DNA of 64,000 nt from Gammaproteobacteria bacterium (GCA_016874135.1 VGVE01000006.1:1085-65084); one strand, 5' to 3'; positions 42,365 through 63,848 are shown, counted from the first letter of the stretch. Made by a program: numbers and translations. The notes: generated by a model not told the origin, from the sequence alone.

Positions 42365-42832
42365 TCATTCGCGGTCCGGATTCCGCCAGATCGGTCCGCG
42401 TGCCTTCACCGGGTCGAGCAAAGCCCAGTCGCCTTCATGGACTTCAAAACCCTTCGGAAAAGGTGGTCGAGCTTCCATGCCGAGGCTGTGCATGACCCGG
42501 TCGTCGCGGTAGTAACAGCGTGCCGTTGCAGTGATCAGCGCTGCAATAAGGAGCGGGTGCTCCTGTCTGACTGGTTCGAGCACGGCCTGATGTTGTTCGA
42601 TAGGAAGACCCACGAATGAACCCCCGGACCTTTCATCGAGTATCCCGATCAGCTGTTGGATGGCGACGGTTTCCCGTCCGAGCGACTTCAGGATGTCCGC
42701 GAAGATAAGTGGATCATCCGCTCCGGGTACGCCGTGTTCATCACTTGCCGGAATCATGCTGCCGACGAGCACGGCAAGTGTCCGGCTTTGGGCCGAGGTT
42801 AGCTTCGCCTGAAAATGAATCTCGGTTTTCAT
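42365..42832 (-). CDS. Gluconate 2-dehydrogenase subunit 3-like small protein
   Basis: 155 aa. LTSAQSRTLAVLVGSMIPASDEHGVPGADD...CYYRDDRVMHSLG. It overlaps the upstream GMC gene by 4 nt. I see no twin-arginine signal. Confidence 0.6.
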   Translation of the reverse strand: MKTEIHFQAKLTSAQSRTLAVLVGSMIPASDEHGVPGADDPLIFADILKSLGRETVAIQQLIGILDERSGGSFVGLPIEQHQAVLEPVRQEHPLLIAALITATARCYYRDDRVMHSLGMEARPPFPKGFEVHEGDWALLDPVKARGPIWRNPDRE

Positions 42833-44505
42833 GCGTCGGCGTCGAACAGATTGGCGAGACGTTTTTTGATGTTATCCGCCACATGCAAGGCGATCGCCTG
42901 AATCGTTGCGGTCGGATTCACACCACCCGACGTGACGAATACGCTGCCGTCGACGATGAAAAGGTTTTTTACGTCGTGGGCACGTCCCCAGGAGTTAACT
43001 ACAGAGTTCTCCGGGTCATCGCCCATGCGTGCTGTACCCAACAGATGCCAGCCGCCGTTGAGGATGGGCGCCTCACTCTGTATTTCCCTCGCGCCCGCAG
43101 TTTCGAGGATTTCCCTGCCTCGTTCGATTGCGAAGGCCAGCATGGCGCGGCTGTTGGCACTCAGTTGGTATTCGATGCGCGGCGCAGGGATGCCGTTGGC
43201 ATCCTTGAGTACCGGATCGAGGGTCACGCGGTTGTGAGCTTCCGGCAGATCCTCGCAGATGGCTGCCATGGAAATGCTGCGATCAAACAGCATTCGATAA
43301 GCCTCGTGATGGCCGCTTCCCCAGGGAATCAGCCCGGTCATCATGCCGACCATGGCAGTCAATGCCGGTCCCATGCCGCGGTTGAACTGAAACGTAAATC
43401 CGCGCACGAATCCCCGCGTTCGATCCGTTTCGTAGAACTGTTGGCTCCAGGTGCCGACGTGCGGACCGCGATGGCCATCGAGCGGTCGATCAAAGAATCC
43501 CCTGATTGAGGCATAGGGGTGAAACATCAGGTTGCGCCCCACAAGGCCAGTCGAATTCGCGAGGCCGTTCGGGAAGCGGTTGCTGGTGGAATTCAGCAAC
43601 AGTCGTGGTGTGCCGACGCCGTTGCAGGCCACAACGACCACGTCAGCAGGCTGGAACTGCTCGACACCTGAAACATCGAAGTACACCGCTCCATTCGCCA
43701 TGCCGGATGCATCCACGGTGATCTCGCGAACACGGGCACGCGTACGCAGTTCCACGCGCTGACGAATGGCATGCGGCCAGTAGGTGATATCGGTGCTGGC
43801 TTTTGCACCTTGTGCGCATCCCGCCATGCAGTTGCCAAGATTGATGCAACGCCCGCGCCCGTCGTAGTCCTTCGTTGCCATGGCGGTGTCCGCAGGCCAC
43901 CAGTGCCAGCCGAGGGTGTTGAGGGCGCGGCCATACGTCGTACCGGTGTGGCCAAGGGGTAGCGGCGGCAGTACCGCCTCCTTGGGTGGATAGGCCGGAT
44001 CGCCGGCGAGGCCAGAGATCCCCATCATGCGATCGTTCAAAGCAAACCAGGGTTCAAGCGTCGGATAGTCGATGGGCCAGTCGTCCGCAACACCGTCCAG
44101 GGAGCGCACCCGGAAATCTGACGGATGTAATCTGGGGAAGTGACCCGCATAGAGAATCGTGCCACCACCCACACCATTGAAGTTCACCACCTTGATGGGC
44201 GAACCACTGTCATTGATCGGATAGTCTGCGGGACTGCGGCGCACGTTCGGATTGATGTTGAAGTCGGTGAATTGCCGCTCTTCCCAGTCGCGGCCATTGC
44301 TCGGGTAGTCAGTGGGTTTTACCCAGTCTCCCTGTTCGAGACAGACGATGCGCATGCGCGTTTCGGCAAGACTCCAGGCAACCGCGGCGCCTGAGGCGCC
44401 AGCGCCGATGATGAGGACGTCCGCCCGTTCCAGCTGGCTCAATGGTCTCTCGATACGAGGCTTGATGATTGTGAGGAGCATGCCTCCTCGATTTCGAAGG
44501 CTCAA
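42829..44505 (-). CDS. GMC-family FAD oxidoreductase
   Basis: 558 aa. ADVLIIGAGASGAAVAWSLAE (FAD), ...GRGRCINLGNCMAGCAQGAK..., and HLLGTARMG...NLFIVDGSVF at the C-terminus. Confidence 0.85.
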   Translation of the reverse strand: MSLRNRGGMLLTIIKPRIERPLSQLERADVLIIGAGASGAAVAWSLAETRMRIVCLEQGDWVKPTDYPSNGRDWEERQFTDFNINPNVRRSPADYPINDSGSPIKVVNFNGVGGGTILYAGHFPRLHPSDFRVRSLDGVADDWPIDYPTLEPWFALNDRMMGISGLAGDPAYPPKEAVLPPLPLGHTGTTYGRALNTLGWHWWPADTAMATKDYDGRGRCINLGNCMAGCAQGAKASTDITYWPHAIRQRVELRTRARVREITVDASGMANGAVYFDVSGVEQFQPADVVVVACNGVGTPRLLLNSTSNRFPNGLANSTGLVGRNLMFHPYASIRGFFDRPLDGHRGPHVGTWSQQFYETDRTRGFVRGFTFQFNRGMGPALTAMVGMMTGLIPWGSGHHEAYRMLFDRSISMAAICEDLPEAHNRVTLDPVLKDANGIPAPRIEYQLSANSRAMLAFAIERGREILETAGAREIQSEAPILNGGWHLLGTARMGDDPENSVVNSWGRAHDVKNLFIVDGSVFVTSGGVNPTATIQAIALHVADNIKKRLANLFDADA

Positions 44506-44593: not shown

Positions 44594-45121
44594 ATGAGCG
44601 AAGAATCCGGATTCCGTTTCCGCGGCATCAACCACCTTGCGCTGACTTCTTCTGACATGGATCGAACCATCCGGTTCTATCGTGATGTCCTTGGCATGCC
44701 GCTGACCAAAACCATCGATTTCCCGGGCGGGCGCGGGAAGCACTATTTCTTCGATATTGGCGGCGGTGACAGCATCGCCTTTTTTGAGTTTCCAAAGGGG
44801 CCGAAGCCGGTTGACCGAAAGACTCTGGGTCAGATGGCTGCGACGCCCGGGATGATGCATCACGTCGCTTTCGACGTGGCGCCTGAAGACATCGAGAGAT
44901 ACCGCGACAGGCTTATCGCAAAGGGCATTGAGGTCACCGAGGTGGTGAACCACGACGATACCGAGAAAGGTGCCAGCCCTGAGATCAATGAGAGCACTTT
45001 CGTGCGCTCAATCTACTTCCGCGATCCAGACGGTTTTCAGCTCGAGTTTGCTGCGTGGGCCCGACCGCTGGTGGTGCAGGATGTGAAGCCAGAGTATCGG
45101 GACAACCAAGGCCGGGCGTAG
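44594..45121 (+). CDS. VOC-family (glyoxalase-fold) protein
   Basis: Start at the ATG at 44594. FRFRGINHLALTSSDMDRTIRFYRDVLGMPL...MHHVAFDV...IYFRDPDGFQLEF. Confidence 0.75.
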   Translation: MSEESGFRFRGINHLALTSSDMDRTIRFYRDVLGMPLTKTIDFPGGRGKHYFFDIGGGDSIAFFEFPKGPKPVDRKTLGQMAATPGMMHHVAFDVAPEDIERYRDRLIAKGIEVTEVVNHDDTEKGASPEINESTFVRSIYFRDPDGFQLEFAAWARPLVVQDVKPEYRDNQGRA

Positions 45122-45133
45122 TCCGAAGCGCGA

Positions 45134-45625
45134 TCAGCTTTTCTTCAATGCTGCGAGTTTGAAGTTGTCCCAGGTGACGATCGAATCCGGGATCATCACG
45201 ATCCATCGGCCGTGATCACCGCGAGCGGTCGCATTGTTCGGTGGCGGATTGGCGACAGCGGGTGAGCCGTGACCGCCGTTGTACTTGCGGCCCATCTGGA
45301 TTCGCGCCTCCTGCAGATGCGGGTCAGCCGCCTCAGCTGCTGCATCTTCCAGCACGTAGGCATTGCCCTGCAGCGTCACCGCCTGCAATTCAGGGAATCG
45401 TTCATTGCGATCGACAACGATCGAACATGACGGCGCTCGACGCAGGTTCACTACCTTCTGTCCACGACCATGGATATACACCCGCCCGCCCGCCCAACCG
45501 AACCACATCGGTGTGAGGTTGATCTTTGTGCCGGGGCCGATCGTCGCGATGCGGCAGTTCCAGCTGCTGGTCATGATTTCGGTGATCTGGGATTCGTCGA
45601 GGGCAAGTTTTTTTGATATGGGCAT
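45134..45625 (-). CDS. PPOX-class split-beta-barrel flavoprotein, last gene of the F420 gene string
   Basis: 163 aa. ...ITEIMTSSWNCRIATIGPGTKINLTPMWFGWAGGRVYIHGRGQKVVNLRRAPSCSIVVD... is a PNPOx-like core. Confidence 0.7.
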   Translation of the reverse strand: MPISKKLALDESQITEIMTSSWNCRIATIGPGTKINLTPMWFGWAGGRVYIHGRGQKVVNLRRAPSCSIVVDRNERFPELQAVTLQGNAYVLEDAAAEAADPHLQEARIQMGRKYNGGHGSPAVANPPPNNATARGDHGRWIVMIPDSIVTWDNFKLAALKKS

Positions 45626-45685
45626 GCGTTCTATCCAGGTGGTTGAGCGTGGCGTTAATGGAACTGGATCATACCCTTTGGCGCT

Positions 45686-46144
45686 TCAATCCAGCCGCAC
45701 CGGATCAAGAACGGTACCCGGCGGATAGTTGTCCGCAATCTGGAACATGCCATCAAGGGTAATCACCGCACTCATGGTGACTGTGCCATCGGCGCCGATT
45801 TCGGCTGGACCGAGGTTAGCGATGACACACCGGCCTTTGTTCATGGGTGCTTCGTTTGCGGTGAGGACAAGCCCCTTCTCTCCGACCTCGATACCGAGAT
45901 CCGAGAGCGTTGAATGGAGCATACCGCCATGCGCATCGAATGCGACTGAACCCTGAAAGCGCATCGCCCCGGTGGCTGAGCCGTCCGGCGCGATGCTGAG
46001 ATCGCCGCCCGGAAGCGCGTTGAACGCAAAAGTTCCATCGTCGGCCTGAGTGGCGCCGTCAGTCAGCGTCACGGTTCCTTCGACCGCTTGGACATAGCCG
46101 CGAAAGCTGACCTTTACGCCCCAGGTGAGCCGGTTGAATCCCAT
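45686..46144 (-). CDS. Stand-alone HtaA-domain protein with no signal peptide
   Basis: Start set at the ATG at 46142-46144. MGFNRLTWGVKVSFRGYVQAVEGTVTLTDGA...FAFN...MRFQGSVAFDAHGGMLHSTLSDLGIEV...ADNYPPGTVLDPVRLD follows the HtaA-domain pattern (W-G-x-K-x-SF-x-x-Y ... F-x-G ... H-x-G-x-L). Confidence 0.6.
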   Translation of the reverse strand: MGFNRLTWGVKVSFRGYVQAVEGTVTLTDGATQADDGTFAFNALPGGDLSIAPDGSATGAMRFQGSVAFDAHGGMLHSTLSDLGIEVGEKGLVLTANEAPMNKGRCVIANLGPAEIGADGTVTMSAVITLDGMFQIADNYPPGTVLDPVRLD

Positions 46145-46235
46145 GGTTTTTCCGAAAGTCTCGAGAAGCCAAGAATGGTGCAGACGGCCGGGAATTGCAC
46201 CTCGTCGGATTTGATCGCGGAGCTGGATGCGGTCG

Positions 46236-48707
46236 CTACCCCGCACTCACATCCAGCGTCTGAATCAGGTTGTTCTTGACCAGGCCCTTCTCCCGCTTGC
46301 GCTCGTACTTCTTCGCCGGCGTATTGATGATCGGTGAGAGCTCTGCGGCGTTGAAACTGCGCCGATGCACATCACGGCTGACATCTCCGTAGGTGGTGCT
46401 GCGCTGGCGTGGCACACGGTTGGCACTCTTGATGATGCGGGTCATCTCCTCGGGAGATGTTTCCTGACCATGTAGCGTTCCTGCTGCACGGGAGATGCTC
46501 TCGTTCATCAGCGTACCGCCGAGATCGTTGCAACCTGCGTTGAGACACGCGAGCACACCCGCATGACCCATCTTCACCCAGCTCGCTTGGATATTGTGGA
46601 TATGCCCGTGCAGGACGATGCGCGCCACGCTGTGCATGAGCAGCGCTTCGCGGAAGGTGGGCCCGCGACGGGCCTTGCCCTTGAGGTACATGGGCGCTTC
46701 CATGTGGACGAAGGGCAGCGGAACGAATTCGGTGAAGCCGCCGGTGCGGGCCTGGAGGTCGCGAACACGAATCAGATGCCTCGCCCAGTGCACGGGTTTT
46801 TCCACATGGCCGTACATGATGGTGGCTGTGGTCTTGAAGCCGACCTGGTGGGCGGTCTCCATGACTTCGAGCCACTGCGCCGTATTGATCTTGTCCGCAC
46901 AGATGATGGCGCGCACTTCATCGTCGAGGATTTCCGCTGCTGTGCCCGGCAGCGTTCCAAGACCGGCTGCTTTCAAACGTTCGAGATAAGGGGCGAGTGG
47001 CATGCCGAGGGTCGCTGCGCCCTGCCAGACTTCGAGTGGCGAAAACGCATGGATGTGCATTGCCGGCACGGCCTGTTTCACGGTGTGCAGGATTTCCACA
47101 TAGGTGTCGCCGGTATATTCGGGATGGATCCCGCCCTGCATGCACACTTCCGTTGCGCCCCGATCCCAGGCTTCGGCGACACGGCGCGCAATTTCGTCCG
47201 GTGCCAGGTCATAGGGACGCCCGCGCAGATTTTCCGAGAGTTTGCCTTTGGAAAACGCGCAGAACTGACATTTGAAATAACAGATGTTGGTGTAGTTGAT
47301 GTTGCGATTAACCGCGTAGCTCACGGTCTCACCGTTCACCTTCGAACGAAGCGCATCCGCCGCGCGCACGACCGCAGAGAAGTCATCACCGCGCGCCGCA
47401 AAGAGTCGCACCACTTCTTTTTCGTTCAGTACCTCGCCCGTTGCGGCGCGATCCAGGGTCGACTGCAGGTCCGCAGAAACATGGCGTGGCTCGTGAATAA
47501 CGAGATCGAGCACATCCTTCGGCGGCTCGACCGGATCACCCGGGCTCCAGTTGTCGATTCGCGGAAAGCCTTCTGCGTCGATCCGGTTGAGAATCGACTC
47601 GTGCAGATCCGGATGCACCCAACGATCAAGATCACTCGCATATGCCGGATAGATCGTCAGTCTTTCCGTGAGGAATTTGCCCGCCGTCGCCGTTTCCCGG
47701 GCGAGTTCATCGAGGTGTGGCCAAGGCGCTTCCGGGTTCACGAAGTCCGGCGTCAGTGGAGATACGCCACCCCAGTCGTTGATGCCGGCGTGCACGATTT
47801 GCGGCAGTACGCCCGGGCTCAGGTTGGGCGGCGCCTGGATGCTCATCGATTCGCCGAAGATGATTCGGGCGACGGCGATCGTCCAGAGCAGCTCGTTCAG
47901 ATCTGGCTCCGGCGCGTTCACCATCTTGGTATCGGGCTTGGCGCGGAAGTTCTGGACGATGATTTCCTGGATATGTCCGAACTCCTGGTGGATCGCGCGG
48001 ATCTGCAGAAGAGAGTCGATCCGCTCCAGTCGCGTTTCGCCGATGCCGATGAGAATTCCGGTGGTGAACGGCACGCGTGCGATGCCGGCCTGACGCAGTG
48101 TTTCGAGGCGAACGGCCGGCACCTTGTCTGGTGAGCCGTAGTGCGGCATGCCTTTCTGCGTCAGCCGGTCGGAAGCGGACTCGAGCATGATGCCCATGGA
48201 GGGGGACACGCTCTTGAGCTTGGCCAGTTCGTCGGCGGTCAGATTGCCTGGGTTGAGATGGGGCAGCAGCCCGGTCTCTTCATAGACAGCCTTCGCTGCA
48301 GCGAAGAGGTAGTCGACTGTGGAGGCGTAACCCATCTGTGCAAGCGCTTCACGGGCCGCCTTGTAGCGCAGCTCCGGCTTTTCGCCGAGGGTGAACAGCG
48401 CTTCTTTGCAGCCGAGCTTTGCCCCTTCGGAAGCGACCTTCAGCACTTCCTCAATGGACATGTAGGGCGCCTGCACCTTGCGTGGCACCTGGGCAAAGGT
48501 GCAGTAGTGGCAGACGTCCCTGCAAAGGTGGGTGAGAGGCAGAAAGACCTTGCGCGAATAGGTGACCACGTTGTGAAATCCGCGGTCGCGAAGGGTTGCA
48601 GCCACATCGGCCAGCGCGCGGGTGTCTTCAAACCCGGCGAGCAGCCGGGCCTCGTCATCCGACGGAAGATAGCCTGCAAGCGCCTGCTCGAGCAGGTGAT
48701 CGACCAT
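46236..48707 (-). CDS. fbiC: Bifunctional FO synthase (fused CofG/CofH), 7,8-didemethyl-8-hydroxy-5-deazariboflavin synthase
   Basis: 823 aa with two radical-SAM cysteine boxes, CRDVCHYCTF (CofG half) and CYFKCQFCAF (CofH half). It sits with cofC, cofD and cofE. Confidence 0.9.
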   Translation of the reverse strand: MVDHLLEQALAGYLPSDDEARLLAGFEDTRALADVAATLRDRGFHNVVTYSRKVFLPLTHLCRDVCHYCTFAQVPRKVQAPYMSIEEVLKVASEGAKLGCKEALFTLGEKPELRYKAAREALAQMGYASTVDYLFAAAKAVYEETGLLPHLNPGNLTADELAKLKSVSPSMGIMLESASDRLTQKGMPHYGSPDKVPAVRLETLRQAGIARVPFTTGILIGIGETRLERIDSLLQIRAIHQEFGHIQEIIVQNFRAKPDTKMVNAPEPDLNELLWTIAVARIIFGESMSIQAPPNLSPGVLPQIVHAGINDWGGVSPLTPDFVNPEAPWPHLDELARETATAGKFLTERLTIYPAYASDLDRWVHPDLHESILNRIDAEGFPRIDNWSPGDPVEPPKDVLDLVIHEPRHVSADLQSTLDRAATGEVLNEKEVVRLFAARGDDFSAVVRAADALRSKVNGETVSYAVNRNINYTNICYFKCQFCAFSKGKLSENLRGRPYDLAPDEIARRVAEAWDRGATEVCMQGGIHPEYTGDTYVEILHTVKQAVPAMHIHAFSPLEVWQGAATLGMPLAPYLERLKAAGLGTLPGTAAEILDDEVRAIICADKINTAQWLEVMETAHQVGFKTTATIMYGHVEKPVHWARHLIRVRDLQARTGGFTEFVPLPFVHMEAPMYLKGKARRGPTFREALLMHSVARIVLHGHIHNIQASWVKMGHAGVLACLNAGCNDLGGTLMNESISRAAGTLHGQETSPEEMTRIIKSANRVPRQRSTTYGDVSRDVHRRSFNAAELSPIINTPAKKYERKREKGLVKNNLIQTLDVSAG

Positions 48708-48755
48708 GTGCTGTTCCCTCTTTACTGCTGCCGGACTGTTCCGGGTTGCGCCAGT

Positions 48756-49490
48756 TTATGGGCCGGGATGGCCACCGTTGGGAGGGCCATTATGGTGGTC
48801 GGCCAACCGGGCGGCTATACCCGATTTGTCCAAGTAAATACTGGTCTGGGTTTGCCGGTTGCTGCGGAGCAAGGTGACCAGATCGGCAGGTGTATCGATA
48901 TCCAGCTCGAATCCGGGCAGTGGGCAGATATCCGGATCGAGCCCGCGATCCCGCGCGGATTGCAGATGCGGCCTGAAACTTTTGCCGTCAAAGAGCAGAG
49001 GAATGGCGTCGCCCGGGGTCAGGATGAGCCCGTTGGTCCCAAGTTTTTCGTCGTCCGGCATGATCGTCACGCGCCGGTGGCTGCTGAGCGCGGCATCGAC
49101 TTCATCGGCCTTGAGCAGCGGAATGTCCGCAGGAACGATGAACACACCCTCCGCATCGAGATAGTCCCGCAGGTAGTCGGCACCCTGTTTGAGGGCGTCG
49201 GCGAGGTCTGCGTCCGGCTTTTCGGCAAAACGTTCGGTGCCAAACGCCTGGGCGAGGACATCGGCTTCCGGAGTGCGCGAGACAATCAGCGTGCCGCTCA
49301 GGTGGCTCGAGCGCGCAAGGGCGGTCAGGACATCCCGTGCCATAGCGAGCATCAGCAGACGCCGTTCTTCCGCCGACAGCACGTTGGCCAGGCGTTGTTT
49401 GGCGCTCTCGAGCGCCTTAAGGGGCACGATGGCCCAAATAGCTGGTTGAGAGATCGCGGGTTGAGAGATGGCCGGTTGACGGGTTTCCAC
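48756..49490 (-). CDS. cofC: Phospho-precursor guanylyltransferase of F420 biosynthesis (CofC/FbiD)
   Basis: 244 aa. WAIVPLKALESAKQRLANVLSAEERRLLMLAMARDVLTAL and ...GTNGLIL are typical CofC blocks. Located between fbiC and cofD. Confidence 0.8.
   Translation of the reverse strand: METRQPAISQPAISQPAIWAIVPLKALESAKQRLANVLSAEERRLLMLAMARDVLTALARSSHLSGTLIVSRTPEADVLAQAFGTERFAEKPDADLADALKQGADYLRDYLDAEGVFIVPADIPLLKADEVDAALSSHRRVTIMPDDEKLGTNGLILTPGDAIPLLFDGKSFRPHLQSARDRGLDPDICPLPGFELDIDTPADLVTLLRSNRQTQTSIYLDKSGIAARLADHHNGPPNGGHPGP
49439..49480. repeat. Short 15-bp tandem repeat encoding PAISQ-PAISQ-PAI at the 5' end of cofC
   Basis: The plus strand reads ...ctggttgagagat cgcgggttgagagat ggccggttgac.... 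The translation is METRQPAISQPAISQPAIWAIVPLK. Confidence 0.7.
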
Positions 49491-49550
49491 GTCGGACCTC
49501 GGTGACGATAGGCAGTGTGTTGGCTGGTTTGTCAGTGATACCAGAAACGA

Positions 49551-50480
49551 TCAGCGGCGCGGCAACCCTTCGAAAAAGTCCAGGCAGCTCTGCGCGAGTC
49601 CGATCCTATCTTTCAACGTTACCATGATGGTGCGGGTCACCACAGTCGCAGGACGGAGCTGCCCGTGCAACGCGGCATCCTGCTCATCAAGCACGAAGCC
49701 GTCGAGCAGATCTCCGTAGTGCGCGGCCACCTGGGCTGCAGTCGCGGGTACCTTCAGCTCCTGCATCATCTTCGCGGTGGGGCCTTTTATGGCTTTGCCA
49801 CCGACGATCGGCGAAACCGCAATCACGGGCAGGCGGGACAACGCAGCGCGCATACCCGGTACGGCGAGGACGGCATCCACAGACACAAAAGGATTCGAAG
49901 GACAAATCACGACGCCAGTGCACTCGGCGAGAAAGGCGCTGAGCACCGGCGAAAGCTTGGCGGCATCGATGCCTTCGAAGTGGAAGCCGGTGACCGCTGG
50001 CGCACAGCGGTCGCGAACAAAGTAATGCTGAAAGGCCATAGGCCCCTGCTCGGCATGCACGATGGTCCGTACCGGTTGATCACACATCGGCACCATCGTG
50101 TGTGTTATGCCGAGTTTTGTGGTGATCTCGCGGGTGACTTCGGTCAGCGTTGCGCCTGCACGTAACCGTGCAGTCCGATGCAGGTGCAGCGCGAGATCAT
50201 GATCACCGAGGCGGAACCAGCTTTCGCCACCCAGCGCCTCGAGGGAGTCGAGGCAGTTCCAGGTTTCACCCCGGCGGCCCCAACCGAGTTCGGTGTTGTT
50301 CAAGTCCGCTAGGGTGTAGGTGAGGGTATCGATGTCCGGGCAGATGTTGAGGCCCATGTGTTCGAAATCATCGCCAGTGTTGACGACGAAGAGTACTTCA
50401 TCAGGCGGCAGGATCTTCGCGAGGCCCAGGGCAAGTTTGGCTCCGCCCACCCCACCTGTGATCGCGAGGATCTTTCTCAA
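49551..50480 (-). CDS. cofD: FO 2-phospho-L-lactate (or analogue) transferase
   Basis: 309 aa. MRKILAITGGVGGAKLALGL, VVNTGDDFEHMGLNICPDIDT and ICPSNPFVSV are canonical CofD/FbiA blocks. Confidence 0.9.
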   Translation of the reverse strand: MRKILAITGGVGGAKLALGLAKILPPDEVLFVVNTGDDFEHMGLNICPDIDTLTYTLADLNNTELGWGRRGETWNCLDSLEALGGESWFRLGDHDLALHLHRTARLRAGATLTEVTREITTKLGITHTMVPMCDQPVRTIVHAEQGPMAFQHYFVRDRCAPAVTGFHFEGIDAAKLSPVLSAFLAECTGVVICPSNPFVSVDAVLAVPGMRAALSRLPVIAVSPIVGGKAIKGPTAKMMQELKVPATAAQVAAHYGDLLDGFVLDEQDAALHGQLRPATVVTRTIMVTLKDRIGLAQSCLDFFEGLPRR

Positions 50481-50510
50481 GTTGAAGTGCTCAGTCGACC
50501 ACGGGTGCGG

Positions 50511-51269
50511 TCACTTGAAGAGATCCTCTTCGAGCGGCCGGTTGATGAGTTGTGCCGTATCGGCGGTGTCGTCGGGCGGCAGGCCGCGCACCACTGCAGC
50601 TGGAATGCGTTCCGTGGTTTCACCCATCAGCAACGTGGCTGCAGTGGCAATCGCATCGGCACGGTTGATGAGCGTGACTTTGAGTTCGCGCCCGAAGATG
50701 TCATGACCGCCTCGGTGATCCTGCAAGACACGTACGCCTGCGGAACCGATCGCCGCTCCAATCGTGCCGAGTCGCCAGGGGCGATTGTGTGAATCCGTGA
50801 TGATCACGCCGCAGTGTTTGCCGGTGGCACCGTAGACCGCGGCGCGGATACGCGCTGCGGAGGCATCCGGATCCACGGGCAACAACAGCGCCGACTCACC
50901 ACCTCTGTGATCGACGTTCGACTGGTCAATGCCCGCGTTGGCCCCCACGAAACCGAGCCGGTGGCGAACGATGAGCGCACCCGGCCGAGTGCGCAGGATA
51001 TTGGTGCTTTCATCCAGCACCAGCTGGACCATACGCGGGTCCTTGTCCGTAAGCGTGCCGAGTTCGACGGCCTTGCTGCTGGCCGTTATCGAATCGAGCT
51101 TGATCTGTCGCCCTTCCGCCTTGGAAACGATCTTCTGTGCAAGGCAGAGGATGTCGCCGTCGATCAAGTCGATCCCGGCTTGTCGCAGACTCTGCAGCAG
51201 CAGGGTGGCGAGATCGTCACCGGGCTGCACCATCGGCAGCCCTTCGAGCGGAATGACGTGCATCGGCAT
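50511..51269 (-). CDS. cofE: Coenzyme F420-0:L-glutamate ligase, single-domain
   Basis: 252 aa. ...GDILCLAQKIVSKAEGR..., GFVGANAGIDQSN and GVIITDSHNRPWRLG. There is no C-terminal nitroreductase-like extension. Confidence 0.85.
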   Translation of the reverse strand: MPMHVIPLEGLPMVQPGDDLATLLLQSLRQAGIDLIDGDILCLAQKIVSKAEGRQIKLDSITASSKAVELGTLTDKDPRMVQLVLDESTNILRTRPGALIVRHRLGFVGANAGIDQSNVDHRGGESALLLPVDPDASAARIRAAVYGATGKHCGVIITDSHNRPWRLGTIGAAIGSAGVRVLQDHRGGHDIFGRELKVTLINRADAIATAATLLMGETTERIPAAVVRGLPPDDTADTAQLINRPLEEDLFK

Positions 51270-51270
51270 G

Positions 51271-51933
51271 TCAGTGATCGGGTTGACCGATGATCTTGAT
51301 GCCGGCGTGGGAGATTTCCCCGCCCCGGTTAATCTGGATGAGAATCGAGGTCAGTGCTTCCGCGGCAGCGGAGTTTTCAATCGGACCTGCGTGCCAGCCT
51401 TTCATGCCCGCTTCGCCGACCAGTTGCACCACGCGTTCGCGCGCGTCCTTCTTGTTACCGGCAACCAGCACATCACACTCGATCTGCACGTCATGCTGCA
51501 GCAGATGGGCGGCAATGTTCTGGAAGGCGGTCACGACGGAAACATCGTCACCCAGGAAGAGTTGGGCGCGTTTGCCTGCACTGCCTTCCGGTGGCATTTG
51601 CACCGTGCCGACCTTCGGAGGAACGAGTGGGACAGTCACGTCGATGAGGATCTTGCCCTTGAGATGCTGCTTCACCGCATCGAGTGTCGAGATCTGGTGC
51701 GCTGCCGGAACTGTGAGGACGACGATGTCGCCCGCGGCTGCGGCAGCTACGTTTTCCATGGCATCGGCGTTGGTGGAGGGGCTGATCTTTTTCAGTTCAG
51801 CAACCGCGGCCTGCGCTTTGTCGAGGGTGCGTGAGCCGATGACGATGCGGTACCCCGCTTTGGCCCAGCGGATGGCGAGGCCAGTGCCGAGATCACCGGT
51901 ACCGCCGAGAATGGCGATGGTCTCTTTGGACAT
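51271..51933 (-). CDS. npdG: NADPH-dependent F420 reductase
   Basis: 220 aa. IAILGGTGDLGTGLAIRWAKAGYRIVIGSR is the typical NpdG/Fno N-terminus. Its stop is 1 nt from the cofE start. Confidence 0.8.
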   Translation of the reverse strand: MSKETIAILGGTGDLGTGLAIRWAKAGYRIVIGSRTLDKAQAAVAELKKISPSTNADAMENVAAAAAGDIVVLTVPAAHQISTLDAVKQHLKGKILIDVTVPLVPPKVGTVQMPPEGSAGKRAQLFLGDDVSVVTAFQNIAAHLLQHDVQIECDVLVAGNKKDARERVVQLVGEAGMKGWHAGPIENSAAAEALTSILIQINRGGEISHAGIKIIGQPDH

Positions 51934-52043
51934 GAAGTTTCCCCGTGTTCGAAAAGATGTGCCTTGAAGTGCCCTCTCCGGAGGGCGTTCGCGAAAAGGC
52001 CGGGATTATGCCCGAAAGCCCGGAGAACTGGAGATTGCCCTGC

Positions 52044-52505
52044 TCAGGGCTTCCACACCTGCGGCGGTTTGCCTTGGGCCATAGCGGCGAGTGACCAGAC
52101 TTCAAGTCGCCAGGGTGTCAGGCGCAGAGCGCCAAAACTCTCGTCGGCATGCGACTTCCAGAACGCGGATGGGTCATAACCCACGGGCTCTGGCGTTGTT
52201 TTCAGGAGATTCCACAACCATGCGCGGGCATCCAGATCATCCTGTCACTCGGTCTTGCAGTCGATGATGGTCTGTTCGTGTTTCGGGTCCCGGTAGGTCA
52301 GTGAAACATGAGGATTGCCGGCGATGTGTTTGGCCTTGTGACTGTGTCGTCCGGTGGCGATCCAACCCGTTGAGCCATTCCAGACCGGATGCAGGATGCG
52401 TGATCGTGGTCGTCGGCGGGTATCGACGGTGGCGACGGTACACCACACGATCCGGGTGGTGATCTCTTTGAATTTGGCTCCGATATCGGCGGACTGGGTG
52501 GTCAT
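52044..52505 (-). pseudogene. PPOX-class split-barrel flavoprotein gene with a single in-frame TGA (nonsense mutation or read-through)
   Basis: The 86-aa ORF (...RPRSRILHPVWNGSTGWIATGRHSHKAKHIAGNPHVSLTYRDPKHEQTIIDCKTE) ends at the TGA at 52245-52247. The same frame continues for 66 more codons: QDDLDARAWLWNLLKTTPEPVGYDPSAFWKSHADESFGALRLTPWRLEVWSLAAMAQGKPPQVWKP, then a stop at 52044-52046. Joined, the product is a normal ~153-aa PPOX protein. Confidence 0.75.
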
Positions 52506-52626
52506 TGATTTCGGACAGTCATGGTATTGCGAGGAATTGTGCAGGGTTGATTGGCTGTGGTCGAGTTCGGGATGACCGTGGTCAATCTCCTTATACTGCC
52601 GACCAGATCATGGCCGGAGGGGGCTG

Positions 52627-53403
52627 ATGGAATCGAAACCAACCGTGATTGTGACGGGTGCCGGGTCCGGCATCGGTCGCGCTACGTCGTTGCGGTTTGC
52701 GCGTGAAGGATTCAGCGTGATTGCCAACGGCCGCAGGCATGAGGCGCTGGAGGAAACCACAGCTGCTGCCCGCGGGCTTTCCGGTCGGATCATTCCTGTT
52801 GCCGGAGATGTGGCCGTGGATGCGACTGCACAAAAACTCGTGACCGAAGCGCTGAACGCAGGTGATTTCGGCTGGCTGGTCAATAACGCAGGCATTGGCT
52901 GGAACTATGGCATAACCCATCCCGGTTCGATGGCCGCCACCCGTGATACGACACCCGATCAGTGGCGTGAGGTGATGCGGATCAATCTCGACTCGGTCTT
53001 CCTGCTTTGTCATGCGGCCTTGCCGCATCTGTGTGAGCGTGGTGGTGGTGGCATCGTTAATGTGTCGAGTGGTGGTGGCCTCAAAGGCATGGACGATGCG
53101 CATGCCTACGCAACCGCCAAGGCGGGCATCATTAACCTCACCCGCTCCATGGCGAAAACCTATGGACGCTTCAATGTCCGCTCGAATGTCATCGCGCCGG
53201 GATTCGTCGACACCGAGATGGTGGCGTCGGTGCTGGACTCCGGGATGAACCCGTTTGCAAATGAAGCGACCCGTTATCTCGTTTCCCCGCTGGGTAGACC
53301 AGGAACACCCGAAGAAGTGGCGGATGCGATTTTCTTCCTCACCGTGCAGGCGACATACTGCAATGGCGCGGTCTTGTCCATTGACGGAGGTTCGGTTGCA
53401 TGA
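52627..53403 (+). CDS. Short-chain dehydrogenase/reductase (SDR)
   Basis: 258 aa. VIVTGAGSGIGRA, NNAG and YATAK (YxxxK). Confidence 0.85.
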   Translation: MESKPTVIVTGAGSGIGRATSLRFAREGFSVIANGRRHEALEETTAAARGLSGRIIPVAGDVAVDATAQKLVTEALNAGDFGWLVNNAGIGWNYGITHPGSMAATRDTTPDQWREVMRINLDSVFLLCHAALPHLCERGGGGIVNVSSGGGLKGMDDAHAYATAKAGIINLTRSMAKTYGRFNVRSNVIAPGFVDTEMVASVLDSGMNPFANEATRYLVSPLGRPGTPEEVADAIFFLTVQATYCNGAVLSIDGGSVA

Positions 53404-54365: not shown

Positions 54366-54524
54366 GCGGAACCCTCAGTCGGAAGTTTGCTTGGGGAGTA
54401 TGCCGTCCGAATCCCGGCCGAACAGCCAGCCGCCGGGATAGGCATCACGCTTCTGACCTGTACAATCGTCGCCCGCGAACGATTCGCAAACAGCACCAGC
54501 AAACAAGAAGAGACGGGAGTTTCC

Positions 54525-55601
54525 GTGAGTACGCTTTTTTCGCCACTTGCCTTTCCGCGTGGCCCGGCCATGAAAAACCGGTTCATGCTGGCACCACTGA
54601 CCAACCTCCAGAGCCATGCGGACGGTCGATTGTCCGATGCAGAGCATCATTGGCTCGCGATGCGGGCGAAGGGCGGTTTCGGTTCCACCATGACCTGTGC
54701 GGCCCACGTGCAGGCTGTCGGGCAGGGATTCCCCGGGCAATTGGGTGTGTTTGGTGAACAGCACCTTGCTCCGCTCAAACCACTGGCGCACACGATAAAC
54801 AGCGCCAACAGCGTTTCGATCGTGCAGCTACACCATGCGGGTAACCGGTCACCCAAGGACTTGATCGGCACTGACCCGGTATGTCCGTCGGATGATCCGG
54901 CAACGGGCGCACGCGCTCTGACTGAAACCGAAGTGCATGCACTCATCGCCGACTTCATCGCCGCAGCGAAGCGGGTTGAAGAAGCTGGCTTCCATGGTAT
55001 CGAGCTGCACGGTGCGCACGGTTACATCCTTTGCCAGTTCCTCAGCAGCGAAATCAACCAGCGCACCGATGACTTCGGCGGATCATGGGGAAATCGCAGC
55101 CGCATCCTGTTCGACATCATCCGCGGCATACGGAAAGTCTGCCGTCCTGATTTCATCGTTGGCGTGCGTTTGTCGCCGGAGCGGTTTGGCATGCGGCTCG
55201 CGGAGATCCGCGAGCTTTCCCAGCAGCTCATCGACACCGGTGCGGTGGATTTTCTCGACCTGTCCCTGTGGGATACGTTCAAACTTCCGGAAGAGCCGGA
55301 CTTCAAGTCCAAACCGCTCATCAGCTGGTTTGCTGACCTGGATCGCAAAGGGGTACCAGTGGGCGTAGCCGGCAAAATTCATGACCCTGCGGATGCGGAG
55401 CGTGCGCTCGACATGGGCGCAGACTTTGTATTACTCGGTCGTGTGGCCATTCTGCATCACGACTATCCGGTAAAGTTCGTTGCGGATCGGCAATTCAAAC
55501 CCGTGCGCCCGCCTGTTACCCGCGCCTGGCTTGCAACCGAAGGACTGAGCCCGCCCTTCATCAGCTATATGGCCAGCTGGAAAGGATTTGTCGCGGACTG
55601 A
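54525..55601 (+). CDS. Old Yellow Enzyme-family NADH:flavin oxidoreductase
   Basis: GTG at 54525 follows GGGAG. LFSPLAFPRGPAMKNRFMLAPLTN..., GFHGIELHGAHGYILCQFLS and DFVLLGR. Confidence 0.8.
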   Translation: MSTLFSPLAFPRGPAMKNRFMLAPLTNLQSHADGRLSDAEHHWLAMRAKGGFGSTMTCAAHVQAVGQGFPGQLGVFGEQHLAPLKPLAHTINSANSVSIVQLHHAGNRSPKDLIGTDPVCPSDDPATGARALTETEVHALIADFIAAAKRVEEAGFHGIELHGAHGYILCQFLSSEINQRTDDFGGSWGNRSRILFDIIRGIRKVCRPDFIVGVRLSPERFGMRLAEIRELSQQLIDTGAVDFLDLSLWDTFKLPEEPDFKSKPLISWFADLDRKGVPVGVAGKIHDPADAERALDMGADFVLLGRVAILHHDYPVKFVADRQFKPVRPPVTRAWLATEGLSPPFISYMASWKGFVAD

Positions 55602-55635: not shown

Positions 55636-56412
55636 TTACAGGGCGTCCAGCGCCACGAGCATGCTTTTCAATGCGAAGTGTCGATGACTGTCGAGGGTGA
55701 GTTGTCCCACTTCCTCGGCATTAAAACCTTCCTCGGCGTTCAAGCCGATCCAGCCGTTGTGGCCCATGTAGGCCGGAATCGAGGAGCGCTTGTCCATGAT
55801 CAGCACGTCCTGGCGATCTACGCCAACCCAGAACCCGAGGGTCAGTGTGCCGTCGTAACGCCAGGCTTGCGCGAAGGTCTTTTTGCCGGCTCGCCAGACC
55901 GGATTACCGAAGGCTGTGGATTCTTCGGTTTCCGGCAGCGCCAGACAGAAGCGCCGCAGGTGAGCGATGACCTTTTTGACGTGGGGAAGGCCGAAGGAAT
56001 CAGCTCGTTCCGAAGCAACCCGTTTGGAAACGCCGGTGATATTTGGAACCGGTGGCGGGCGATCTCCTTTCAAGCGCGGTGGTGCACACCAGACCCAGGC
56101 TTCCTGGATGCGTTCGCCGATGGTTCGCCAGCGCATGCCTTTGTTCAGATGAATGCCCACCCAGCCGCAGCTGCCGACGTAAGGCGGCACAAAGTAGAAC
56201 TCGGGTTCCATATCCACGTGATACGCCTGTGCACCTGGGCCCATCGCGAGCCAGAGGGCGATGTTGCCGTCGCCATGGTGGTTGACTGAAAACGTCGCAA
56301 ACGTCTTGCCGGCCACCTTGAAGTTTTGCGAGCCATGCGCGACCACCTCCGTAGTTTCCGGCAGGTAGAGGGTGAGTTCGCGTACTGCATCATCAATGGT
56401 GCGGGTCGTCAT
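55636..56412 (-). CDS. Tandem double MmcQ/YjbR-domain protein
   Basis: 258 aa with two copies of the YjbR pattern. Copy 1: LPETTEVVAHGSQNFKVAGKTFATF...PPYVGSCGWVGIHL. Copy 2: LPETEESTAFGNPVWRAGKKTFAQA...PAYMGHNGWIGLNA. Confidence 0.65.
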   Translation of the reverse strand: MTTRTIDDAVRELTLYLPETTEVVAHGSQNFKVAGKTFATFSVNHHGDGNIALWLAMGPGAQAYHVDMEPEFYFVPPYVGSCGWVGIHLNKGMRWRTIGERIQEAWVWCAPPRLKGDRPPPVPNITGVSKRVASERADSFGLPHVKKVIAHLRRFCLALPETEESTAFGNPVWRAGKKTFAQAWRYDGTLTLGFWVGVDRQDVLIMDKRSSIPAYMGHNGWIGLNAEEGFNAEEVGQLTLDSHRHFALKSMLVALDAL

Positions 56413-56560
56413 TCTGCTCTACGCTGATTTCCCGATAGCGGTAGTGCAAGACTACCTCGCCCATGGTGGCGCGGGCCACTTGCCGAAACACAGCTGCCAC
56501 GTGCGAAATCGCGTAGTCTTCGTGACAACAAATCACCTCAGTACTCCGGAGACATTGACC

Positions 56561-57466
56561 ATGCGAATTGGCCTGATGATTGGCGCAGATGGTACCCGCG
56601 CCACCCTCGATGACACCGTTGCTCGCGCGAAGGCGGCGGAGGCTGCCGGCTTCGATAACGTCTGGCTTGCCAATATCTTCTCGTTTGATGCGATCTCGAC
56701 GCTTGCCATCATCGGCCGCGAGACTTCGCGCATCGGTCTTGGCACCGCCGTAACACCCACGTATCCACGCCATCCCACGGCCATCGCCCAACAGGCCATG
56801 ACCACGCAAGCAGCCAGTCGTGGTCGCTTCACCTTGGGCGTTGGCCTTTCCCACAAGGTCGTGATTGAAGACATGCTGGGTCTTTCTTATGCACAACCGG
56901 CGAAGCACATGCGCGAGTACCTCAAGGTACTGATGCCGCTGGTATGTGGGGAGACCTGTCACTTCGATGGTGAACAGTACCGGGTACATGGCGTAACCCT
57001 AGATATCCAGGGCGGCAACAATCTACCCGTGGTGATTGCAGCGCTTGGACCCACGATGCTGAAACTCGCTGCGGAACTCTGTGATGGCACGAATACCTGG
57101 ATGGTGGGGCCGCGGACCATGGAGAAGCACATCATCAAGTCGTTGCGCGACGGCGGTCTCTCGTCACCACGCGTGGTGGGTGGCTATCCGGTGTTGCTGA
57201 CCCACAAGCCTGATGAAGCCCGCAAGGAGCTCGGCAAAATGCTGACGATCTACGGCCAGCTGCCGAGCTATCGCGGCATGCTCGACCGTGAAGGTCTGCG
57301 CAATCCCGAGGATGTCGCCATTCTCGGCGACGAAAATCTCCTGCGTGGTGAGATCCGGCGGTTGGCCGACATGGGTGTGACTGACTTTAACGCGGCCGTA
57401 ATGTCGAGCGACCCGGCGGCGTATACACGAACGGTCGAGTTCCTCGCCGGCATCGCCAGCCGTTGA
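56561..57466 (+). CDS. LLM-class (luciferase-like) oxidoreductase, probably F420-dependent
   Basis: Start at the ATG at 56561. MRIGLMIGADG...AAGFDNVWLANIFSFDA...GTAVTPTYPRHP...GVGLSHK resembles the F420-dependent LLM subfamily as I remember it. Confidence 0.65.
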   Translation: MRIGLMIGADGTRATLDDTVARAKAAEAAGFDNVWLANIFSFDAISTLAIIGRETSRIGLGTAVTPTYPRHPTAIAQQAMTTQAASRGRFTLGVGLSHKVVIEDMLGLSYAQPAKHMREYLKVLMPLVCGETCHFDGEQYRVHGVTLDIQGGNNLPVVIAALGPTMLKLAAELCDGTNTWMVGPRTMEKHIIKSLRDGGLSSPRVVGGYPVLLTHKPDEARKELGKMLTIYGQLPSYRGMLDREGLRNPEDVAILGDENLLRGEIRRLADMGVTDFNAAVMSSDPAAYTRTVEFLAGIASR

Positions 57467-59336: not shown

Positions 59337-60284
59337 TCAGTTCTTCTTGCGTCGCGGTGTGGGATTGAGTGCATCGATTTCCGGTACCAGGTGTTCGATC
59401 ATCAGTCGGGTCTGGTTCAGCATGTCCGCTGTTCCGGAAGCGATAGGACGGAGGATGAACTTGCGTACTCCCGCATCCAGGAATTCGCGGGCCAGTCGCA
59501 TCATCTCGGCGGTATCGCCTACTGCGGTAAAGCCGGTTGCCGCTTTGCCGAGGCGTGCAGTCAGCAGCTGGTTGTAACGGGTCACGATGGGTTCATCGGC
59601 GGATCCGAAGCGGAAGCCAAAGCCTGCTCCGAAGTGATCCGGGTCCATCGGTCGGCCCAGTTCTTCTGCACGTGTCTTGATGGCTGCGATGACCGGGCGC
59701 ACGTCATCCGCATTTTCAATGCCAGCCTGCCAGCCTGTACCCCAGCGTACGGTCCGTTCGATGGCTTGCTCTGCGCTACCACCCACCCAGAGGGGCATGG
59801 GCTTCTGTGCGGGTTTGGGAGCGATGGTGGCATCGGTCAGCTGGTAGTGTTTGCCAGCATAGGTGACCTTGTCTTCGGTCCAGAGGCGAGTGAGGATTTC
59901 GAGGCCTTCCGCAGCCCGTTCACCTCGCCCCCGGGTGGGTGTGCCGGTGGCCACATAGTCTTTTGATACGGCGCTGCCGACACCGAACGCTGGCAACAAT
60001 CGCCCCTCGGAAAGTACGTCGATGGTGGCGCAGGCTTTGGCCATGATCACAGGATCACGCAGCCCAAGGCTTGCCACATTCATGCCGAACTTCACTTTCT
60101 TGGTACGTCCGGCGAGAGCGGCCATGACGCTCATGCACTCGAGATTGTCATCGGCGCCAATGATCCGATCACTTTGCCAGATCGAATCCACACCGCCGCT
60201 GTCGCACAGATCCACCCATTGCCAGAAGCCGCGCGCGTCATCAAACGTGAAGTTGGCTATGCCGATGCCGGCACCGATGCTCAT
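59337..60284 (-). CDS. LLM-class flavin/deazaflavin-dependent oxidoreductase
   Basis: 315 aa. ...[11 protein letters not shown]..., [23 protein letters not shown] and PLWVGG are luciferase-like monooxygenase family blocks. The cofactor (FMN or F420) cannot be decided by eye. Confidence 0.65.
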
Positions 60285-60392
60285 GGTGTTCGAGTACTCC
60301 GCAGGTCAAGAGATCAACGGCGAATGCTCGCGTGATCGCCACCGGGATACAAGGACGCAGTTCGCCTCTTGCAGTTAAGCGCCTGGGCCGAT

Positions 60393-61229
60393 TTACGCAC
60401 GCACTCGTGCCGGGTCGTACGCATCACGCAAGCGGTCGCCGAGCAGATTCAGACTCCACACCGTGATTGCCAGGAACGTTGCGGGAAAGAGCAGGGTCCA
60501 GGGAGCGGACTCCATGGTTGTCGTGCCGTCGGCGATCAATACACCCCAGCTGGCATCCGGTTCCTGCACGCCGAGACCGAGAAAGCTGAGAAAACTCTCG
60601 GCGAGGATGATTCCCGGCACGGTCAGCGTCGCATACACCAGCGCAGGACCCGCAACGTTCGGAAGGATGTGGCGAAACACGATCCAGGGCGTGGTTGCAC
60701 CGAGAGCGCGAGCCGCGAGGATGAAGTTGGCGTTGCGTATCCGAAGCGTCTGACCGCGAACGATGCGGGCAATGTCCAGCCAATACACAGCGCCGAGGCC
60801 CGCGAAGAGCGCCCACGTGTTACGCCCCACAACGACCACGATAAGGATCACGACGAGCACGAAGGGCAGGGCATAGAGCGTATCCACGAGACGCATCATC
60901 AGTTGATCGGTGCGACCCCCGATGTAACCGGCGATGGCACCATACGGTACACCAATCAGCACGCTGATCCCGGTTGCGAGCAAGGCGATGGACAAGGATA
61001 ACCGACCGCCTTCAGCGATTCGGGTGAAGAGGTCGCGACCAACTAGGTCTGTGCCGAACCAGTGTCGATCATCGGGCGGCGTTTCAAGCGATTCCCAGTC
61101 CACGTCTTCTGCATTGAAGCCGGAAACCGACGTACTGGTCAGCGTCAACAGAACGATGCAAAGCAGCAGCACGGAAGCCGCCATCGCCACTGCGGAACCA
61201 CAACAAATCTGTTTGAGACGGCGGCTCAC
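60393..61229 (-). CDS. ABC transporter permease (OppC/DppC type)
   Basis: 278 aa. ...WFGTDLVGRDLFTRI... with the typical permease core. Confidence 0.85.
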   Translation of the reverse strand: MSRRLKQICCGSAVAMAASVLLLCIVLLTLTSTSVSGFNAEDVDWESLETPPDDRHWFGTDLVGRDLFTRIAEGGRLSLSIALLATGISVLIGVPYGAIAGYIGGRTDQLMMRLVDTLYALPFVLVVILIVVVVGRNTWALFAGLGAVYWLDIARIVRGQTLRIRNANFILAARALGATTPWIVFRHILPNVAGPALVYATLTVPGIILAESFLSFLGLGVQEPDASWGVLIADGTTTMESAPWTLLFPATFLAITVWSLNLLGDRLRDAYDPARVRA

Positions 61230-62137: not shown

Positions 62138-62146
62138 CGTGTCAGA

Positions 62147-63715: not shown

Positions 63716-63848
63716 GGAAGCAGCAGGTCCAATCGATGACGGAACGCACGATAACGGAACGAAGGCGCAAAGCCAGCGCTTTGACGGCGCATCGATCAAC
63801 CCCACAATGCAGGTGGAGTTTTTTCTGGCAGTTCAGAGGTTGTGAGCG

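Follow-up and report, generated by a model that had tools for sequence, protein, structure and literature searches.

Reductases of the nitroreductase type are known from Thermomicrobium roseum, where the protein stands alone, and from Rhodococcus (PMC8498797), and for organisms whose CofE consists of a single domain Bashiri et al. postulated an as yet unidentified reductase, 'CofX' (PMC6450877). Among Proteobacteria, F420 has been found in Oligotropha carboxidovorans as well as in Paracoccus denitrificans (cited in PMC8498797), and the CofC enzymes of Paracoccus and Oligotropha preferred 2-phospholactate (2-PL) in vitro and did not use 3-phosphoglycerate (3-PG) (Hasan et al., PMC8764529). Whether Gram-negatives with a single-domain CofE build the lactyl linker of F420 directly from 2-PL, or from phosphoenolpyruvate (PEP) with the help of a further reductase, is a real open question. 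Here we analyze an F420 operon lying within a stretch of 64,000 nucleotides, hereafter the window, from an assembly labelled Gammaproteobacteria bacterium (GCA_016874135.1, VGVE01000006.1:1085-65084). An original prediction, made from the sequence alone, had described a complete operon of five genes devoid of a recognizable dehydro-F420-0 reductase and extended by two further genes, one of them a candidate for the missing enzyme. Our results point to a functional operon of the standard proteobacterial type, in which the two downstream genes are recent additions, one of them a probable consumer of F420H2, and an upstream gene has decayed. We consider this reading likely.

The F420 operon and the search for a reductase

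Seven co-oriented minus-strand open reading frames (ORFs) fill positions 45134-51933 of the window. The five core genes, npdG, cofE, cofD, cofC and fbiC, run head to tail from 51933 down to 46236 (Table 1) with spacers of 1, 30, 60 and 48 nt; a further 91 nt separate fbiC from a gene for an HtaA-like protein, and 60 nt separate the latter from a split-barrel gene that we will henceforth call PPOX-down. Families were called with NCBIfam models at their curated equivalog cut-offs, and domains were assigned with Pfam. The five contiguous genes are indeed found where they had been placed, every one of them above its cut-off: npdG scores 189.7 bits against TIGR01915 (cut-off 149.8), cofE 260.5 against TIGR01916 (180.65), cofD 281.5 against TIGR01819 (257.45), cofC 158.9 against TIGR03552 (105) and fbiC 1160 against the CofGH model NF006687 (1018). 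With fbiC also matching TIGR03550 and TIGR03551, all models originally put forward for checking the annotation recognize their gene. The FbiC translation contains two radical-SAM CxxxCxxC boxes, CRDVCHYC and CYFKCQFC. CofE is a single-domain protein, as predicted, PF01996 (residues 11-229) being its only Pfam match; the same holds for all of its 120 best homologues, which measure 240-271 amino acids. A scan of positions 44900-52800 returned zero promoter-like sites and fewer terminator-like sites than expected from shuffled sequence, and is uninformative on the operon boundaries.

Table 1. Features of the F420 operon and its surroundings, with positions counted from the first nucleotide of the window
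Feature	Position	Strand	Basis
PPOX-up, pseudogene of a Gsp26/PNPOx-like split-barrel protein	52044-52505	minus	premature TGA at 52245-52247 and W86R
npdG/fno, NADPH-dependent F420 reductase, 220 amino acids, first intact operon gene	51271-51933	minus	TIGR01915, PF03807
cofE, single-domain F420-0:gamma-glutamyl ligase, 252 amino acids	50511-51269	minus	TIGR01916, PF01996
cofD, phospho-acid transferase onto FO, 309 amino acids	49551-50480	minus	TIGR01819, PF01933
cofC, guanylyltransferase, 244 amino acids as called	48756-49490	minus	TIGR03552; best solved relative 7P97
fbiC, fused CofG/CofH FO synthase, 823 amino acids	46236-48707	minus	NF006687 CofGH, TIGR03550, TIGR03551
HtaA-like protein with a single CR domain, 152 amino acids, lineage-specific addition	45686-46144	minus	PF04213
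PPOX-down, Rv2991-like (FDOR-B-like) split-barrel protein, 163 amino acids, probable F420H2-dependent reductase, lineage-specific addition	45134-45625	minus	1RFE, AlphaFold/Foldseek
F420-dependent LLM-class oxidoreductase, likely F420 consumer	56372-57466	plus	TIGR03564, PF00296
Second LLM-class oxidoreductase, possible F420 consumer, beside an Opp-like ABC transporter	59337-60284	minus	TIGR03619

Judged by family membership, FbiC would make the deazaflavin FO, CofC would activate a phosphorylated C3 acid with GTP, CofD would move the activated acid onto FO, CofE would add gamma-glutamates, and NpdG/Fno would recharge F420 with NADPH. We infer from this gene set that the host makes F420. A Gram-negative host is supported by the TonB-dependent receptors encoded in the window. 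Proteins identical to its FbiC and CofE are present on contigs of several JGI and Logan metagenome assemblies, and the nearest named relatives are gammaproteobacterial metagenome-assembled genomes (MAGs) of Pseudomonadales, OM182 and Candidatus Azotimanducaceae.

The N-terminus of the cofC ORF (around 49434-49478, minus strand) deserves a remark. It starts METRQPAISQPAISQPAIW, in which a triple PAISQ repeat, corresponding to a 15-nt tandem repeat, precedes the conserved core. The start codon of cofC or the copy number of the repeat may vary, relatives being called at 221-250 amino acids.

The search for a dehydro-F420-0 reductase covered the 64-kb window. None of its 58 called ORFs matches the nitroreductase family PF00881 in Pfam, and a tblastn search with the C-terminal nitroreductase domain of FbiB from Rhodococcus sp. 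ZPP returned nothing in the window at E ≤ 10; as a positive control, the same probe matched metagenome locus L075 beside cofC and cofD (E = 3e-32). For Rhodococcus RHA1 pRHL3, no FbiB was found. There is, consequently, no local nitroreductase at the locus, just as had been reported from inspection of the ORFs. Candidates among the neighbouring genes were rejected on account of their distribution. An Old Yellow Enzyme-family FMN ene-reductase is encoded 2.5 kb upstream of npdG (54387-55601, plus strand); this chemically conceivable C=C reductase recurs, among annotated related clusters, only in L010 and not in L014, L015 or L102-L104. A glyoxalase gene, considered as a possible reductase or 2-PL-forming enzyme, likewise recurs in L010 only, being absent from L015 and L102-L104; the His_Phos_1 and GST genes, considered for the same roles, extend to L014 as well as L010 but no further, L015 and L102-L104 lacking both.

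The same arrangement is found well beyond the window. The gene order npdG-cofE-cofD-cofC-fbiC, the CofE measuring about 250 amino acids, is present in L010, in L014 (GCA_024234695.1) and in L015 (from a genome of 4.36 Mb), in three more genomes (L102, L103 and L104) and in metagenome loci L022-L024 and L026-L028; npdG keeps its place in every related cluster compared. PGAP annotation shows the five core genes, in varying order, also on plasmids from Aromatoleum aromaticum EbN1, Sinorhizobium meliloti, Agrobacterium rubi, Paraburkholderia sp. PGU19 and Croceicoccus marinus. No nitroreductase was found in the retrieved flanks of the gammaproteobacterial loci or of the five plasmid clusters by Pfam lists, PGAP annotation or tblastn with the FbiB domain, and LLM-class oxidoreductases of the F420 type are frequent neighbours of proteobacterial F420 clusters. 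A five-gene layout lacking a reductase is therefore normal for Proteobacteria. The absence of a reductase had been pointed out for this locus; since it is true of every proteobacterial cluster examined, it is better regarded as the class-wide, published 'CofX' question (PMC6450877) than as a peculiarity of the window.

CofC and the side-chain precursor

Among solved structures, the window CofC is best matched by 7P97, the 3-PG enzyme from Mycetohabitans sp. B3 (107 bits, against 52.6 bits for Mycobacterium tuberculosis FbiD). The catalytic and conserved residues K20, K26, R28, D116, T147, N148, S165, D191 and D193 (numbering of the Mycetohabitans sp. B3 enzyme) are kept. At the positions of S162, M91, C95 and H145 of the Mycetohabitans protein, on the other hand, the window protein carries Asp, Leu, Leu and Leu, respectively. 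Acceptance of 3-PG is diagnosed by Ser or Thr at the S162 position; the S162E, S162Y, S162G and S162A mutants of Mycetohabitans CofC prefer 2-PL and PEP, and the M91L and C95L substitutions lower the use of 3-PG (PMC8764529). As the diagnostic residues are absent from the window CofC, 3-PG is disfavoured, and the side-chain precursor would be 2-PL or PEP. This narrows the earlier suggestion that CofC might avoid the need for a reductase by using 2-PL or 3-PG, of which 2-PL is still among the options. If PEP were the precursor, reduction would be carried out by something outside the operon.

The Asp at the S162-equivalent position is invariant in the 13 CofCs of the gamma clade that were aligned (the window and 12 others). 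Elsewhere the position is occupied by Gly (alpha- and betaproteobacterial CofCs and FbiD), Tyr (M. mazei) or Ser (Mycetohabitans). It is conceivable that this clade-invariant residue, at a position governing specificity, marks a side-chain precursor not yet described. Identity to 7P97 amounts to 38%, which is no higher than for the Gly-bearing alpha- and betaproteobacterial CofCs, and in a neighbour-joining tree Mycetohabitans and A. rubi fall loosely together with the gamma clade, although this tree is too crude for claims about 3-PG ancestry. Hasan et al. cautioned that CofC/CofD pairs are informative only when cognate (PMC8764529).

Flanking split-barrel genes, the HtaA-like gene and further neighbours

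PPOX-down is a real split-barrel ORF, as predicted, although its match to the F420-PPOX families is weak. It stays below all their cut-offs (TIGR03618, 47.1 against 79.05; TIGR03667, 25.7 against 125.3; TIGR04023, 17.9 against 85.6) and scores 27.6 bits against PF12900. By sequence it matches PDB entry 1RFE (Rv2991; E = 1.2e-11, 23% identity), and 1RFE also comes first when the AlphaFold model (pLDDT 92.9) is searched with Foldseek (E = 2e-12, TM 0.74). The matches include the F420-binding FDOR-B structures 4ZKY, 5JV4, 3F7E and 1W9A, and the fold neighbours in Foldseek comprise F420-, FAD- and haem-binding split-barrel proteins. Most likely, PPOX-down is an FDOR-B-type reductase that depends on F420H2 and hence a consumer of F420H2, a role it would share with the LLM oxidoreductases encoded a few kb upstream. 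Its family is very rare (of 1.84 billion cluster representatives, 375 match at E ≤ 1e-3 and 20 at E ≤ 1e-30) and patchily linked to F420 genes; the closest relative, P0361, sits on a 1.4-kb contig between a P450-like fragment and an MDR dehydrogenase, an uninformative context. Since single-domain cofE is widespread, PPOX-down cannot account for the missing reductase in general. The prediction had offered it as either reductase or consumer; the latter role is the more probable.

As neighbours downstream of fbiC, the HtaA-like gene and PPOX-down are confined to the window population (L011-L013) and L010; in L014, L015, L024, L026, L027 and L102-L104 they are absent from this place. In L014, the His_Phos_1 gene comes directly after fbiC, whereas in the window and L010 it lies beyond the HtaA-like gene, PPOX-down and the glyoxalase gene, indicating that the pair was inserted. 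The pair thus shows a lineage-restricted distribution and would have been gained recently in one sublineage. It had been thought to extend the operon, but does not belong to the conserved unit, at least eight related clusters lacking it. The L011 contig belongs to the window population and its FbiC is identical, yet gene calling splits its PPOX-down (5540-6024) into ORFs of 80 and 81 amino acids instead of one of 163. Either a frameshift variant or faulty assembly may lie behind this; were the split real, PPOX-down would likewise be dispensable in part of the population.

The HtaA-like ORF scores 90.3 bits against PF04213 and matches PDB entry 6JSA (E = 4.5e-11); its start at 46144 is supported by homologues of 152 amino acids. 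Following the residue roles described for CR domains (PMC12494546), its predicted haem contacts are S13, Y17 (axial), H72 (helper) and Y140 (propionate), all invariant in 16 relatives. By inspection, the domain begins at residue 5, and no hydrophobic leader or signal peptide precedes it. A secreted or surface haemophore context is missing, with zero haem-uptake genes in the neighbourhood, and none of the homologues L001-L009 (nine places, equivalent to eight distinct genomic loci) has an F420 gene within 10 kb. These leaderless proteins of 152 amino acids form a tight family with a single CR domain, found widely in MAGs of OM182, Azotimanducaceae and Pseudomonadales, where its contexts vary and are other than haem uptake. 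A cytoplasmic Gram-negative CR domain seems to be previously undescribed. Its pairing with PPOX-down hints at a tetrapyrrole substrate for the latter, which could have the haem-type CR-domain protein as its partner and work on a planar compound, whether derived from haem or not; FDOR-B3 and FDOR-B4 enzymes are biliverdin reductases (PMC8498797).

Upstream, the operon had been taken to end at 51933. This overlooked PPOX-up, which heads the operon in relatives and is a pseudogene in the window. In relatives it is a PNPOx_N gene of 153-167 amino acids directly upstream of npdG, an arrangement seen in 12 loci (L010, L014, L015 and nine metagenome loci, whose copies share about 63% identity or more with that of L010); it is absent from L102-L104. 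Two Trp residues, W86 and W101, are conserved without exception in 24 sequences. In the window copy one invariant Trp codon has changed from TGG to TGA and a second invariant Trp has become Arg (Table 1). The identical stop is present in the independent assemblies L016 and L017 (SRR7990526, SRR7053051), and the gene is intact in L010, L014, L015, L022 and L024, of which L022 is the closest relative (87% DNA identity to the window copy). L023 (10001-10462) has a TGA of independent origin, which replaces the codon of the other invariant Trp. Before the stop, the window and L022 differ by 12 non-synonymous and 8 synonymous codon changes, compared with 14 and 65 between L023 and L022, a pattern that would fit relaxed constraint, small as the numbers are. 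Recoding of the TGA as selenocysteine or Trp was rejected, given the TGG in relatives, the use of TGA as the gene's own terminal stop and the raised level of non-synonymous changes ahead of the premature one. The loss at an invariant Trp in two lineages, together with the intact state of the window's five core genes, argues against an essential biosynthetic role. PPOX-up has a Gsp26/COG3871-type fold (predicted model, pLDDT 90.8) and belongs to a large family (5917 hits, Chloroflexota included), and its relatives are unlinked to F420 biosynthesis at about 65 of 80 metagenome loci. It is therefore a subclade-specific accessory gene that has decayed in the window lineage. For two separate Trp-to-TGA events in an ORF that is otherwise well conserved, dispensability of the gene is the only explanation at hand.

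Split-barrel genes accompany F420 genes elsewhere too. At the head of the Aromatoleum EbN1 cluster stands a PNPOx-family gene distinct from both PPOX-up and PPOX-down; in T. roseum, a gene of the PPOX class is placed 4 nt upstream of the single-domain cofE, and a PNPOx gene lies near the fused FbiB of Rhodococcus. These proteins are mutually non-orthologous, with identities of at most 34% over partial lengths (at most 25% among PPOX-down, PPOX-up and the Aromatoleum protein), and no accessory gene is conserved across the F420 clusters compared. Since such genes also adjoin F420 genes in organisms with a known reductase, their adjacency would reflect the clustering of cofactor users with cofactor synthesis and is no evidence for a reductase.

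Two LLM-class genes lie on the far side of npdG. The nearer, 4.4 kb from the operon, scores 301.8 bits against TIGR03564 (cut-off 234.25); its true start is probably near 56561, because the L016 copy is called at 301 amino acids. The second scores 156.5 bits against TIGR03619, slightly under the cut-off of 166.9. Together with an Opp/Dpp-like ABC transporter (a binding protein and two permeases) it occupies 59337-63805; similar transporter and LLM neighbourhoods adjoin the F420 operons in L015 (605-4878) and L104 (297-4647). This module, which is often accompanied by PhyH-family dioxygenases, may constitute an F420-dependent catabolic module for an imported substrate. On the other flank, a GMC-family oxidoreductase (558 amino acids) and an overlapping ORF of 155 amino acids with no family match (42365-44505, minus strand) lie between the glyoxalase and His_Phos_1 genes; both are missing there in L010, suggesting a second recent insertion. 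Unrelated to the F420 operon, two plus-strand genes (9813-12146 and 30617-33055) encode proteins of 777 and 812 amino acids, each with two stretches of CoA-transferase family III, which look duplicated or fused in their domains.

Alternative explanations and comparison with known systems

Several points weigh against the reading of a standard operon with a newly gained consumer. No bacterial source of 2-PL is known (PMC6450877, 10.1101/670455), and the PEP route would need a reductase, which was sought only within 64 kb. The diagnostic rule for S162 rests on few enzymes, none of them with Asp. PPOX-down is co-oriented with fbiC at spacings of only 60-91 nt, making co-transcription plausible, and as FDORs are ene-reductases that reduce activated C=C bonds (PMC8498797), a biosynthetic role is chemically conceivable. 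CofC and CofD might then use PEP, with an operon-linked split-barrel protein (PPOX-down here, PPOX-up in relatives) acting as 'CofX' on dehydro-F420-0 with F420H2 or FOH2 supplied by Fno. Such a scheme would agree with the lack of a nitroreductase near any proteobacterial cluster examined, with the place of PPOX-up upstream of npdG in a gammaproteobacterial subclade and with the PNPOx-family gene heading the Aromatoleum cluster, and a broken PPOX-up beside an intact PPOX-down would fit a replacement. The three proteins, however, are not orthologous, and a split-barrel gene is missing altogether from L102-L104 and from four of the five plasmid clusters. Most PPOX-up relatives occur away from F420 biosynthesis, the gene has been stopped in two lineages while the window's five core genes still pass their cut-offs, the PPOX-down family is tiny, and PPOX genes flank cofE even where a nitroreductase-type reductase is known. 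We regard a split-barrel 'CofX' as improbable, and the more specific version, in which the gamma clade builds F420 from PEP and the newly acquired PPOX-down has replaced the decayed PPOX-up, as very unlikely. The idea of a candidate reductase at this locus, its PPOX-up variant included, is in sum weakly supported.

The reductase could also be dispensed with, were the operon to make 3PG-F420 or another non-lactyl variant in the manner of Mycetohabitans. The closest solved CofC is after all a 3-PG enzyme, the clade-invariant Asp sits at the very position that determines specificity, and the ubiquity of 3-PG would explain self-sufficient, mobile five-gene clusters. Set against this are the identity of that residue, neither Ser nor Thr, at a site where substitution abolishes the preference for 3-PG, the Leu residues at the M91 and C95 positions, an identity to 7P97 not exceeding that of Gly-bearing CofCs, and the failure of the Paracoccus and Oligotropha enzymes to use 3-PG, so that we hold this variant to be most unlikely. 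A decaying or silent island, horizontally acquired and yielding little or no F420, is hardly probable either. Its lead gene PPOX-up is a pseudogene, PPOX-down is split on the L011 contig, and only trace F420 was found in two alphaproteobacteria tested (PMC8498797); yet the five biosynthetic genes are full length and above equivalog cut-offs, their products share 88-97% identity with their counterparts in intact relatives, the operon region has an even GC content (~0.58-0.62), and F420-dependent LLM genes are kept nearby.

A standard operon flanked by lineage-specific additions thus remains our preferred reading: the operon is of a known kind, in a little-studied host group, and its annotation is sound. 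The locus sharpens the question of the lactyl linker, in that the reductase-less five-gene core is the rule in alpha-, beta- and gammaproteobacteria, mobile plasmids included, that the gamma clade carries Asp at a CofC residue known to set substrate choice, and that no accessory gene is conserved. The compact operon could, moreover, serve as a source of parts for heterologous F420 production.

Described systems offer a comparison for each part of the locus. The HtaA-like protein shares with the CR domains of Corynebacterium HtaA/ChtA the PF04213 family and the conserved axial Tyr, Ser, helper His and propionate Tyr, but is a single Gram-negative domain of 152 residues, devoid of leader and anchor and encoded outside a haem-uptake locus. 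PPOX-down has the split-barrel fold of mycobacterial FDOR-B proteins (Rv2991, PDB 1RFE; the F420-binding MSMEG_6526 and Rv1155), but is proteobacterial, falls under every curated F420-PPOX cut-off and has a predicted cofactor only; FDORs are listed for Actinobacteria and Chloroflexi in a review (PMC8498797).

The core operon resembles the 3PG-F420 pathway of Mycetohabitans (Paraburkholderia) rhizoxinica and Mycetohabitans sp. B3 in its single-domain CofE, lack of a reductase and fused FbiC, but the window encodes Fno and F420-type LLMs, both of which M. rhizoxinica is reported to lack (10.1101/670455). With the actinobacterial FbiABCD and Thermomicrobium pathways it has homologous FbiC, CofC/FbiD, CofD/FbiA and CofE domains in common; unlike the two-domain FbiB of Actinobacteria or the stand-alone nitroreductase FbiE of Thermomicrobium, however, a nitroreductase is neither fused to CofE nor encoded elsewhere in the 64 kb. 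The closest likeness is to the proteobacterial clusters. The window differs from those of alpha- and betaproteobacteria by the Asp in CofC where these have Gly, by the HtaA-like and Rv2991-like pair downstream and the decayed PNPOx-like gene upstream, and by its host, a gammaproteobacterium, a class on which a 2021 review is silent. With Aromatoleum EbN1 plasmid 2, Sinorhizobium pSymA and Croceicoccus pCME4A9I it nonetheless shares the same five genes, a CofE of about 250-260 amino acids, the absence of a nitroreductase and the presence of LLM-class F420 oxidoreductases nearby.

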